Shown piece by piece: positions 16,790 to 19,015 of a DNA stretch of 64,000 nt. The position numbers and the translations under genes are program-made. The notes beneath the pieces are model-generated. The model ran no database searches. It saw nothing but the letters and a program-made list of their open reading frames with translations, and was not told the DNA's origin. The number at the start of each line of letters is the position of its first letter. Within the stretch, counting starts at the first letter, position 1. The stretch is taken from sequence record OP778610; one strand, 5' to 3'. This stretch comes from Escherichia phage W70.

Positions 16790-16959
16790 TAAACCAGGGG
16801 CCGCAATAGTGGCCCTTGTCATGTCCATCGGTGCGACTCTCCCAACCCTATTAATCCCTTCCCCATTTGGATCATCATAACTTACCTCATCTAATCATTA
16901 ATCTAATCCCCTTTGGAATCTCTCCCCCACAAATCTAAACTAATCTGATAGCTTACCAT

Positions 16960-17340
16960 AACATAATCCACAAAGAAAGAACTATTTTGCCCACAAAGAA
17001 AGGCAGTTTTAAAGAGATACCATTGCCAGAGTATGGAGGTGGCGCGACCGTAGGGAGCGACACTATAAAACGAGTATACCCCTCCTACCGCTATGCGGTC
17101 ATCGGTGATAACCGATATCGTTACACGCTATCTGTTCTCTTCGTTTCCTCGTTTTATAGTGTCTATATGTAGTAATCTTTTATTCTTTGTCAATACATTA
17201 TCGAAGATAATATTGAATTATTTAATGCTTTGTTATTCATATAAAGTGAATAGCTAGTCAATAGGAAGGCCGTTAGTGTGACCACACAAAGAGGCTATGC
17301 ACCACAAAGAGAGGCCGTACTTGCCCACAAAAGGAGCAAA
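16960..17340. repeat. dispersed CCACAAAGARAGG direct repeats (5 copies) in non-coding DNA
   Basis: copies near 16967, 16990, 17281, 17301, 17324; TAATCCACA at 16964-16972 is a DnaA-box-like 8/9 match. Confidence 0.55.
17059..17163. repeat. 16-bp perfect inverted repeat with ~73-bp spacer
   Basis: GACACTATAAAACGAG at 17059-17074 and its reverse complement CTCGTTTTATAGTGTC at 17148-17163; inner palindrome ATCGGTGATAACCGAT. Confidence 0.7.
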
Positions 17341-17444
17341 CAAGCAAGGCGGTACGCCAGTTTGCTAATGAGCGTAGCTCTTTTGCTAGACAAAACTCTC
17401 TTCTCTCTTCTTTCCCAAAATAAATTTTTTCTTGCTTTTATTGC

Positions 17445-17600
17445 CAGAGTATGGCGGGGCGCTCAGGCTATTGATGGCCCTGATGGAGTCGCTCCTGCAC
17501 AGTTGGGATAGTTCATCGTTGGATAGTCACAAGTTGGTATTATTCTTCCCACTAGTTGGAACAGGCCAGAACTGGCGGGGCTTGGAGTCGCTCCACTTGT
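17445..17600. repeat. degenerate ~40-bp direct repeats CCAGAGTATGGCGGGGCGC..GGAGTCGCTCC
   Basis: units near 17445-17510 and 17562-17600, with a related unit at 17025-17060. Confidence 0.5.
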
Positions 17601-17890
17601 TGGACGGAAGAAGGGCGCTTGCAGTGCGTATAAGTTGTATTATGTTAAATGCAGATCGAAATCGGTATTCTAAACCAGATTCAGAAGTCAATAGAAATCT
17701 TTAACTTTATTGTTGGGGCAGCACAACATTTTTCTTGACAAGTCGAATCAAAGATGTATTGTGGATTGAAAATAAATGAAGATAATGCTTGACTTCTTGG
17801 ATATTTTGAAAACATCGGACCCCCTCCCCCTCCCCCACGGTCGCCGTGCCTGGCAGCAGTATCGATACGCTAGGATATTTTAGCCCCTAC

Positions 17891-17920
17891 TGGACAAGAC
17901 ACCCCCCCGTCAGTTATAAT
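17891..17920 (+). promoter_or_regulatory. promoter TGGACA-N18-TATAAT for HNH gene
   Basis: preceded by C-rich tract CCCCCTCCCCCTCCCCCA (17819-17837). Confidence 0.4.
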
Positions 17921-17954
17921 GGGGGTATACCTATAGAAAAGTAAGGAGGTTGTA

Positions 17955-18443
17955 GTGGTAATGTTGAGGGTTCCCTCTTCGGACGAATTGGAGCTAATAA
18001 AAGAATACCTTGAACTGTCAGACGCGTCACCGACAGGACTTGTGTGGAAAAAGAAACCTAGTGCAAAAGTTTATGTTGGGGAGCCAGCTATGCTCTGCAT
18101 AGATAGCGGAGGCTACTATCGTGGAATGTTCAAGAAGAAAGGGTATGCTGCACATCGTATTGTCTTCTATCTTTACCACAACCGTTGGCCTACTGGGGAG
18201 ATAGACCATATAAATGGGGACAGGTTGGACAACTCACCCCCTAACTTGAGGGAAGTTGACAGATCTTTTAATTCAGCTAATAGGGGTAGGGGCTACCAAG
18301 TGTTGGACAATGGTACATTCCTAGCTCAAATAAGGAGACAAGGTAAAACATATAAAAAAACATTCAATACGGAAGAACAAGCCATCCGATGGAGAAAAGA
18401 GATGAGACTATTCCTTTACGGAACAGATATTTGGCAGCAGTAA
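17955..18443 (+). CDS. HNH homing endonuclease (HNH_3 type), free-standing
   Basis: GEIDHINGDRLDNSPPNLREVDRSFN motif; SD AAGGAGG; GTG at 17955 or ATG at 17961; paralogous to 58007 and 62199 genes. Confidence 0.7.
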   Translation: MVMLRVPSSDELELIKEYLELSDASPTGLVWKKKPSAKVYVGEPAMLCIDSGGYYRGMFKKKGYAAHRIVFYLYHNRWPTGEIDHINGDRLDNSPPNLREVDRSFNSANRGRGYQVLDNGTFLAQIRRQGKTYKKTFNTEEQAIRWRKEMRLFLYGTDIWQQ

Positions 18444-18450
18444 TGTAAAG

Positions 18451-18482
18451 AAGGACACCCTAAAAGGTGTCCTTAATTTTTT
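18451..18482 (+). terminator. rho-independent terminator
   Basis: AAGGACACC-CTAAAA-GGTGTCCTT followed by AATTTTTT. Confidence 0.75.
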
Positions 18483-18649
18483 GGCGGGGAGGTATAAAAC
18501 ATAAAAAGTGGAGTGACTAAACTGGAAAGATCGAAGCGACTCGCTAGGCAGATGTTCCTCCGTGGCATGAATGCCACTCTGTGGACAATAGGCATTACTC
18601 TGTAGACAATCGGAATAACATGAAGTAGGTCAGTCTCTTCAGAAAGTCT

Positions 18650-18960
18650 TGACCATTGTGGAAATATATGAAGTAATCCGTCAACCAAAATGGTTTACAT
18701 TGTGGAAAGTAAACCAAAATGGTTTAGATGTGGGTAAACAGATGTGCCTCGACAGGCAAAGTGGTGTGTCTCAGTAGGCCAACAGTGGTTACTCTTTAGG
18801 CAAACTACCTGATTTTGGGAGGAACTGATATTTGTGGGAATCGTTGTACGATATTTGGGCATTATTGTATGCAGGGTACAACAGTTTGGAAGGACGATAT
18901 AGTTTGGTGGGCACAACATTTTTGTGGAGGGTAGAACATTTTTGGGGCATATATGTTTGG
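18650..18960. repeat. cluster of TTGTGGRAA / TTTGGGG motifs with 26-bp tandem duplication
   Basis: ACCAAAATGGTTTA..TGTGGRAA at 18685-18710 and 18712-18737; about 9 TGTGG-like motifs; non-coding convergence zone. Confidence 0.5.
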
Positions 18961-18975
18961 TTGCAATCCAGATGC

Positions 18976-19000
18976 AAAAAGCACCCACTTTTGGGGTGCT
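18976..19000 (-). terminator. rho-independent terminator for minus-strand array
   Basis: on minus strand GAGCACCCC-AAAAGT-GGGTGCT followed by TTTTT. Confidence 0.65.
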
Positions 19001-19015
19001 CTCTGTAGTTCAGGA

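Follow-up and report, generated by a model that had tools for sequence, protein, structure and literature searches.

A probable short-terminal-repeat junction and its candidate end-forming signals in Escherichia phage W70

Short direct terminal repeats have been reported for several phages of the Vequintavirinae. The repeat of Gotham is 459 bp long (PMC7471380), those of EdH4 and HdK5 458 bp (PMC6563267), that of KPP-1, determined from coverage and PhageTerm, 514 bp (PMC9862379), and that of Jab, a phage related to UPEC06, Septuagintavirus and the A73 group, 475 bp (PMC13538427). In both Gotham and KPP-1 the repeat occupies an equivalent gene-free gap between convergent gene blocks. Here we analyse such a gap in Escherichia phage W70, using a 64,000-nt stretch of record OP778610 (hereafter the window). 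W70 is an rV5-like E. coli phage of the Vequintavirinae whose closest relatives are A73, A7_1, A5-4, vB_EcoM-LTH01 and UPEC06. A sequence search with positions 16500-19300 returned matches to five phage records only, at 89-97% identity; within the zone W70 and these relatives are 87-98% identical.

The zone lies between the final plus-strand gene (16592-16789) and the opening minus-strand gene (19016-19414). The only convincing gene between 16789 and 19016 encodes an HNH endonuclease; the remainder is non-coding and rich in short, strand-specific repeats. Judging from the ends of related phages, the zone is very probably the concatemer junction of a T7-like, unit-length packager with short direct terminal repeats. 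As such it is of a known kind, a Vequintavirinae terminal-repeat region plus a selfish HNH insert, and not a new kind of system. Three details, the cut-site motif, a covarying hairpin and a conserved oriented array, were not found described in the literature searched, which was incomplete.

Terminal repeat and paired inverted sites

The position of the repeat was mapped from UPEC06. The UPEC06 record begins at a G homologous to 17389, ends at a C homologous to 17850 and carries a 462-bp repeat, 100% identical at its start and end, which corresponds to 17389-17850 of the window. Overlaps of SPAdes k-mers would not yield 462 bp. The UPEC06 termini were defined by its authors with PhageTerm (PMC8928767). 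The mapped repeat falls between the two gene ends and its length agrees with the roughly 460-510 bp expected of a Vequintavirinae repeat. Six Vequintavirus records from different submitters (Gotham, EdH4, HdK5, ECP2309, YN3 and Pr121LW) likewise have an end at the Gotham repeat. The first five begin with it, whilst in Pr121LW it is reversed and forms the first 459 bases; the Gotham record (MT682716) has a repeat_region annotated at both ends. The repeat is present only once in the window, which fits a collapsed or rotated assembly of a terminal-repeat genome. The predicted repeat, its boundaries and the elements inside it are as follows.

17389-17850: predicted direct terminal repeat, 462 bp, one copy in the window, mapped from UPEC06
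17384-17392, plus strand: left cut site TGCTA^GACA, cut at 17388/17389, within the palindrome TTTTG-CTAGA-CAAAA (17381-17395)
17847-17855, minus strand: right cut site TGCCA^GGCA (TGCC^TGGCA on the plus strand), cut at 17850/17851
17396-17411: CT tract inside the repeat
17735-17762: sigma-70-like promoter match inside the repeat
17838-17850: palindrome CACGGTCGCCGTG inside the repeat
Elsewhere inside 17389-17850: GCCAG-NN-CTGGC and GGAGTCGCTCC elements

Both boundaries share one short motif. Taking for every boundary the strand on which it forms the 5' start of the repeat, and having seen the sites, we built the consensus TGYYA^RRCR from the following.

Window and UPEC06: left TGCTA^GACA, right TGCCA^GGCA
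Gotham: left TGCCA^GGCG, right TGTCA^GACA
KPP-1: left TGCTA^GACG, right TGCTA^AACA

All six boundaries, which come from three lineages, conform to this consensus, and its register agrees exactly with the ends that three different groups reported. Within each phage the two sites point in opposite directions. Within the window, 17384/17847 is the sole TGYYARRCR pair in this orientation spaced 400-550 nt apart. By our own estimate the chance of an in-register match to a fixed 9-mer (7-8 of 9 positions) is about 1e-3 per site, so that such matches at three sites by coincidence are very unlikely.

The boundary elements are conserved out to Certrevirus. In phiTE and CR3 the palindrome TTTTGC(TAG/CTG)GCAAAA is retained at the left cut site, and Certrevirus keeps both sites: one reads TTTTGCCTGGCAAAA or TTTTGCTAGGCAAAA, the other GCCATGCCTGGCAGC, and their centres are 444 bp apart. 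The 17-mer around the right cut is also conserved in Certrevirus. An IMG/VR scan with this 17-mer (TCGCCRTGCCTGGCAGC) returned 15 loci, made up of four true relatives (including CR3 and phiTE) and 11 chance matches in unrelated contigs. The cuts predicted for phiTE fall between TTTTGCTA and GGCAAAA and between GCCATGCC and TGGCAGC.

These arrangements suggest how the ends may form. Replicating concatemers would hold one copy of 17389-17850 between neighbouring genomes, and virions a copy at each end. The two inverted, quasi-palindromic 9-bp sites would direct end formation, with the top strand cut at 17388/17389 and the bottom strand at 17850/17851. The enzyme that cuts is most likely terminase and would meet the two boundaries in opposite orientation, with the repeat always on the same side of the cut. 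With opposite strands cut 462 bp apart, DNA synthesis through the repeat would then leave every daughter chromosome with a complete copy. The hairpin and oriented flank arrays described below are proposed to act as recognition or processing signals, adding specificity beyond the degenerate 9-mer. We infer the ends of W70 itself, the cutting enzyme, the strand cut and the roles of hairpin and arrays from sequence comparison.

Some further observations concern the boundaries and the repeat. The right cut lies inside CCTGG (17849-17853), a target of the host Dcm methylase, and the homologous Gotham and CR3 boundaries also contain CCWGG. A73 (OP778609) has a 104-nt insertion at about 3960-4065 of the A73 stretch compared, corresponding to 17455/17456 of the window. 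Its first 46 nt or so, following a run of G, are unrelated sequence, and the next 57 nt duplicate 17399-17455 of the window. The A73 gene numbering wraps at this insertion, which resembles an assembly join near the repeat's left edge. The terminal repeat of E. coli Vequintavirus phages also has matches, at about 95%, in eighteen records that bear the name 'Campylobacter phage' (C2 and D1 among them), which is odd for the named host. Lastly, the Certrevirus counterpart of the repeat contains several near-consensus Fur-box-like palindromes, for example GATAATGAGAATCATTATC, whilst the window clade has none. In the phiTE stretch compared, with counterparts also in CR3 and PBES 02, they lie at the following positions.

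2467-2485 of the phiTE stretch: Fur-box-like palindrome
2665-2682 of the phiTE stretch: Fur-box-like palindrome
2793-2806 of the phiTE stretch: Fur-box-like palindrome

Long hairpin, motif arrays and conserved islands

A long inverted repeat stands outside the left boundary. Its homologues occur in the window clade, Certrevirus, Gotham and KPP-1 (four genera), with perfect arms of 16-21 nt and loops of 71-164 nt, and in all four groups they are positioned 170-370 nt outside the equivalent boundary.

17059-17163: long hairpin or cruciform, 16-nt perfect arms GACACTATAAAACGAG and CTCGTTTTATAGTGTC, 73-nt loop, 226 nt outside the left boundary
phiTE: homologous arm GACCAATAGAAAAGGGTAA
CR3: homologous arm GACCAATAGAAAACAGGT
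CR9: homologous arm GACCAATAGAAAAGGGGTA
Gotham: homologous arm GACATAATATAAAAGCAG
KPP-1: homologous arm AGCGACACAATAACACGGGAG

In the window the arms can be extended to 21 nt at 90% complementarity, with 63 nt between them. Outside the window clade the perfect arms are 18-21 nt long and differ in sequence from those of the window. Six distinct arm sequences were found in total, each fully self-complementary, with every change in one arm compensated in the opposite arm. In the coordinates of the Gotham and KPP-1 records the hairpin appears on the other side of the repeat. We considered an inverted terminal module as the cause and rejected it, as tblastx shows the whole window to be reverse-complemented relative to the Gotham record (Gotham gene 3994-4224 on the minus strand matches window 16161-16349 on the plus strand at 62%). 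Given these opposite record orientations, the hairpin adjoins the same type of boundary everywhere. We also rejected the start of the PBES 02 record (NC_028672) as a physical end. This record begins and finishes inside the two hairpin arms, at 1-20 and 3715-3733 of the two PBES 02 stretches compared, and lacks the loop seen in CR3; the assembly was probably broken at the inverted repeat.

Alignment of six phages revealed two islands of conservation, the first of which includes the left hairpin arm.

16961-17120: 94% of columns invariant (neighbouring blocks 31-68%); contains the left hairpin arm along with the first CCACAAAG box pair and a GC-rich element, GCCAGAGTATGG...GCGAC
17641-17862: 91% of columns invariant; covers the right cut site together with the C tract and a promoter-like site

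Short oriented motifs flank the repeat on both sides. The left flank contains five plus-strand copies of CCACAAA against 0.09 expected, and its CCACAAAG boxes are confined to the coliphage clade. In the right flank, TGTGG occurs six times on the plus strand and not at all on the minus strand (0.36 expected). Strand specificity of the TGTGG arrays holds across all 11 genomes compared, with 2-8 copies on the plus strand and 0-2 on the minus strand, and the number of units varies among relatives.

16966-17003, plus strand: first CCACAAAGAAAG box pair, 23 nt apart; the opposite strand reads TTTGTGG
17172-17270: AT-rich stretch with a GC content of 25% (window 40%), variable in sequence among relatives
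17280-17331, plus strand: second CCACA(C)AAAG cluster, three boxes with spacings of 20 and 23 nt
18576-18960, plus strand only: T(G/T)TGG array, the last eight copies 15-31 nt apart, mostly about 20

An earlier note, made from the sequence alone, had listed several repeats here, and we recounted each. Its CCACAAAGARAGG repeats are real and local: 13 matches at up to two mismatches occur in 64 kb against 3.5 expected, a count that no shuffle reached, and four lie within 16968-17314, including the only two exact copies of the window (16991 and 17302). The C-rich tract also stands, as (CCCCCT)x2.8 at 17820-17836. Other items need qualification, two of them being imprecise. Three TGTGGRAA copies do cluster in 18657-18840, but the motif is not enriched across the window, where 12 matches compare with 7 expected and 9 of 100 shuffles reached 12. 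The '~40-bp repeats' resolve into two short shared blocks whose spacing varies: ATTGCCAGAGTATGG (17022 and 17440) and TGGAGTCGCTCC (17484 and 17583). The '26-bp tandem duplication' consists in fact of two 21-nt copies spaced at a 29-nt period (18680/18709) and of an array at 18903-18943 with a 20-nt period. The DnaA-box-like TAATCCACA is present at 16964-16972. It differs from a DnaA box at a single position, and three of five relatives (A7_1, LTH01 and UPEC06) have CACACA in its place. Beyond that list, GTTGG has six copies in 17502-17712 against 0.43 expected, five of them clustered at 17502-17603 and one at 17712.

The same note had proposed a replication origin or terminus. Iteron-like CCACAAAG and TGTGG boxes, an AT-rich unwinding stretch and the hairpin could form an origin, with or without host DnaA, and such a function would be compatible with a terminal repeat. 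The CCACAAAG box clusters do flank both the 25%-GC stretch and the conserved hairpin, the 2.2-kb zone holds four one-mismatch DnaA boxes against about 1.2 expected from the window-wide rate, and conserved non-coding islands imply some function. However, the zone contains no exact DnaA box (TTATCCACA), the flagged TAATCCACA is not conserved, the left-flank CCACA arrays are missing from Certrevirus, and the AT-rich stretch is unconserved in sequence. The turn in GC skew falls at the switch of coding strand and is thus uninformative on replication. Nor would an origin account for two records whose ends coincide exactly with the paired sites. We therefore regard an origin as unlikely, though worth keeping in mind; the evidence favours the physical ends of the virion chromosome instead.

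We next weighed non-coding RNA or regulatory transcripts, with the hairpin block and G-rich right flank transcribed from sigma-70-like promoters. Promoter-like sites are present at 17735-17762 and 17891-17920, but the 16 such sites are only a modest excess over the 10 expected from shuffles. As RNA the hairpin block folds better than shuffled sequence (z = -2.9). The fold is however no worse in DNA (z = -3.4) or on the opposite strand, and perfect palindromic arms do not discriminate, so these data cannot tell which form matters. The Certrevirus phage phiTE expresses a non-coding antitoxin mimic, but from a different locus, and pseudo-ToxI is unannotated in the phiTE stretch around its junction. 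No Rfam match was found at E <= 1 in 15500-20000, and a scan of the window for transfer RNA and transfer-messenger RNA genes found none. An RNA function for the zone is thus rather improbable.

Hidden protein-coding genes also found no support. The open reading frames (ORFs) 16987-17172, 17278-17511, 17432-17704 and 18695-18988 (minus strand) each contain frameshifts or early stops in 2-5 of five close relatives, in line with the earlier view that 16987-17172 and 17278-17704 are spurious. Annotations of the close relatives show differing small ORFs, differing strands or nearly none in the zone, and four Certrevirus genomes have an annotation gap of 1.5-1.9 kb at the corresponding place. The earlier note had named coding sequence in homologues, or absence of the repeats, as findings that would count against it. 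In the 11 related genomes inspected we saw neither: the zone is gene-free or has inconsistent small ORF calls only, and the right-flank motif array is retained.

The gene blocks on either side end in hairpins. Together with the gene ends at 16789 and 19016, these agree with the earlier description of two converging blocks with terminators on both sides, and of a special non-coding zone in which we likewise find only the HNH gene convincing.

16798-16815, plus strand: hairpin GGGCCGCAATAGTGGCCC, terminator-like, after gene 16592-16789; weak T tail; retained in five relatives
About 18976-19003, minus strand: terminator hairpin GCACCC...GGGTGC followed by TTTTT, ending the minus-strand block; invariant among six phages except for two loop bases in A7_1

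Of the proteins encoded next to the zone, the two on the minus side (19016-19414 and 19396-19638) match no Pfam or PHROG family, and for the two on the plus side the sole matches are to PHROG families without an assigned function. Upstream of the last small plus-strand genes, at 16047-16074 and 16512-16540, lie strong matches to sigma-70-like promoters (TTGACA, 16-17-nt spacers), and the leader of the 16592 gene includes GCCCACAAATAGGAC, which resembles the left-flank CCACAAAG boxes. A few kb from the chromosome end, two adjacent minus-strand genes at 21542-23938 show weak matches to RCC1-like repeat families. One of the two proteins exceeds the RCC1_2 gathering score, whilst the WD40_RLD matches of both are far below theirs.

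Packaging mode among related phages

Several points weigh against a fixed terminal repeat in W70. The repeat is single-copy in the window, so the ends of this phage are taken from its relatives. The 9-bp consensus is degenerate, with about one match per 2 kb per strand, and cannot be the sole determinant of cutting; it was also derived post hoc from the sites themselves, and the published boundaries could be 1-2 bases off. The hairpin and arrays could instead act in replication or transcription. Reports on related phages also conflict with a fixed repeat. phiTE was described as circularly permuted from Bal-31 and restriction analysis (PMC3475682), despite having both cut sites and the hairpin. 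CB7, which like phiTE keeps both sites and the hairpin, was called circularly permuted from Bal-31 treatment and the lack of a region of raised depth at 2554x (PMC7344957). PVP-SE1 was likewise described as circularly permuted, and for one Vequintavirus the PhageTerm call was headful packaging (PMC13211470).

These reports raise a rival role for the sites, as the pac region of a headful packager. The sites would then start packaging series, and virion DNA would be terminally redundant and at least partly permuted, with no fixed 462-bp repeat. In its favour are the reported permutation of phiTE and CB7, generalized transduction by phiTE and the headful call in one Vequintavirus. Set against these are five independent reports of discrete 458-514-bp repeats, with the UPEC06 record as a sixth case, and the record ends in three lineages that match inverted copies of one site. 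Headful packaging moreover predicts at most one defined end, not two. We consider it highly improbable as an account of this zone.

In Certrevirus, conserved cut sites and hairpin stand beside reported permutation, whilst sister genera have discrete, measured repeats. Either packaging differs among genera that share these signals, or some of the assignments are mistaken.

If the short-terminal-repeat reading is right, it has practical value. Many Vequintavirinae records are deposited with arbitrary starts or as 'circularly permuted', and the signature would allow their ends to be predicted from sequence. Its parts are a pair of TGYYA^RRCR sites in inverted orientation at a distance of about 445-515 bp, a hairpin close by and, for the compared Certrevirus and coliphage clades, an array of TGTGG. 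Genome ends are also relevant when genomes are rebooted or when therapeutic phages are assessed for the risk of transduction. The signature also offers concrete sites at which to study duplication of a short terminal repeat in a large myovirus.

HNH cassette and comparison with known systems

The single gene in the zone sits just outside the right boundary. ORF 17955-18443 (plus strand) matches Pfam HNH_3 (PF13392) with 48.8 bits against a cut-off of 24.8, and phrog_99 with E = 3e-43. Comparison with relatives delimits the insert precisely.

17909-18474, plus strand: HNH cassette, about 566 bp, about 60 bp outside the right cut, between ...CACCCC and AAATTTTTGGCGGG
17915-17920: TATAAT -10 element of the cassette
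17944-17949: AGGAGG, ribosome-binding-site match of the cassette
17955: GTG start of the HNH ORF, with an in-frame ATG at 17961
18451-18474: bidirectional terminator hairpin
18475-18511: block AATTTTTTGGCGGGGAGGTATAAAACATAAAAAGTGG, present in 12 of 12 genomes compared, the right edge of the empty HNH site

The corresponding -35 hexamer, TGGACA at 17891-17896, is not part of the cassette but of the shared spacer next to it. The cassette is absent from the five close coliphages and from five HNH-less Certrevirus-type genomes (CR3, CR9, DU_PP_I and two IMG/VR contigs), leaving a clean empty site; the five coliphages have a different filler of about 130-170 bp near it. phiTE carries the cassette at the equivalent site, and the two proteins are 58% identical in amino acids. 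The best match in the collection searched is to a protein of CB7 (57.5%), a Certrevirus with 21 HNH genes (PMC7344957). Two HNH_3 paralogues, 39-41% identical to the 17955-18443 protein, are encoded elsewhere in the window at 58007-58516 and 62199-62699 (both minus strand). Members of the family are found in many phages, in some cases under the annotation of homing endonuclease. tblastn detected no HNH remnant in the HNH-less relatives. We had considered GATATATTTGGGCAGG a remnant of the HNH 3' end in these phages, but rejected this as it fits better to the ancestral spacer of HNH-less Certrevirus.

Presence or absence at one site, a self-contained cassette, paralogues and a widespread family all fit a mobile gene and not a packaging component. 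On this pattern, the HNH gene is a putative mobile homing-endonuclease cassette, separate from the packaging machinery. The earlier note had already called it a free-standing endonuclease; the region is mosaic among relatives, and the alignment now supplies the exact insertion site. That the HNH protein is instead a working part of end formation, as for HK97-like terminases, is scarcely credible: it lies about 60 bp from the cut site, at an equivalent position in the window and phiTE, and HNH proteins do occur in some packaging machines (Kala et al. 2014, as far as cited in PMC7344957), but it is absent from the five close relatives and five Certrevirus-type genomes that keep the cut sites, it has two paralogues elsewhere in the window and belongs to a widespread family partly annotated as homing endonucleases, and the ten large window proteins scanned included no terminase, only nucleotide-metabolism and other genes.

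A wider reading would join these strands. The paired inverted sites and hairpin may be one subfamily-wide end-formation system, which would include the Certrevirus phages called permuted headful packagers (the reports being wrong, or the signals serving two packaging modes), and the homing endonuclease may be specialised on conserved sequence just inside the chromosome end. We offer this combination tentatively and think it somewhat doubtful as a whole.

Among described HNH systems, the cassette most resembles the T4 mob genes and the CB7 HNH genes, which share the HNH_3 domain, a presence/absence cassette and several paralogues per genome. Unlike homing endonucleases in or beside a conserved enzyme gene, its site is non-coding and by a genome end. 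A terminase accessory of the HK97 gp74 type would be conserved and adjacent to terminase or portal genes, whereas the window HNH gene is missing from ten genomes that keep the cut sites.

T7 reportedly has a 160-bp terminal repeat with arrays of short repeats on both sides, and in the window, too, short-repeat arrays flank the predicted repeat and a hairpin-forming inverted repeat adjoins the junction. We know of no paired inverted cut sites in T7, and of no phage-encoded RNA polymerase in the group to which W70 belongs. T7 has a single copy of the repeat between genomes, which requires duplication at cutting, and the same is proposed here. A hairpin intermediate, or inverted repeat, at the T7 junction was described by Chung and Hinkle 1990, to the extent summarised in PMC4281155. 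Unlike T7, W70 belongs to the myoviruses, at about 140 kb, and has no sequence similarity to T7.

In lambda, the nicking site cosN lies beside the terminase-binding cosB repeats, and 12-nt cohesive ends form at one site. By analogy, the window has a quasi-palindromic cut site near an oriented short-repeat array that could position terminase. Unlike lambda, its two sites 462 bp apart would bound a duplicated, blunt repeat.

The closest likeness is to the Vequintavirus and Mydovirus repeats. The window repeat and the Vequintavirus repeat are unrelated at the blastn level, and the flank motifs differ, with TGTTTACA and CATGACA in Gotham against TGTGG and CCACAAAG in the window. W70 also differs from the phages compared in having an HNH cassette beside the repeat and in that its ends are inferred whereas theirs are reported. 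The repeats of Gotham, EdH4, HdK5, KPP-1 and Jab nevertheless have the same convergent-gap position and a similar length, and Gotham and KPP-1, like the window, have the 9-bp site at both boundaries and a homologous hairpin by one of them.

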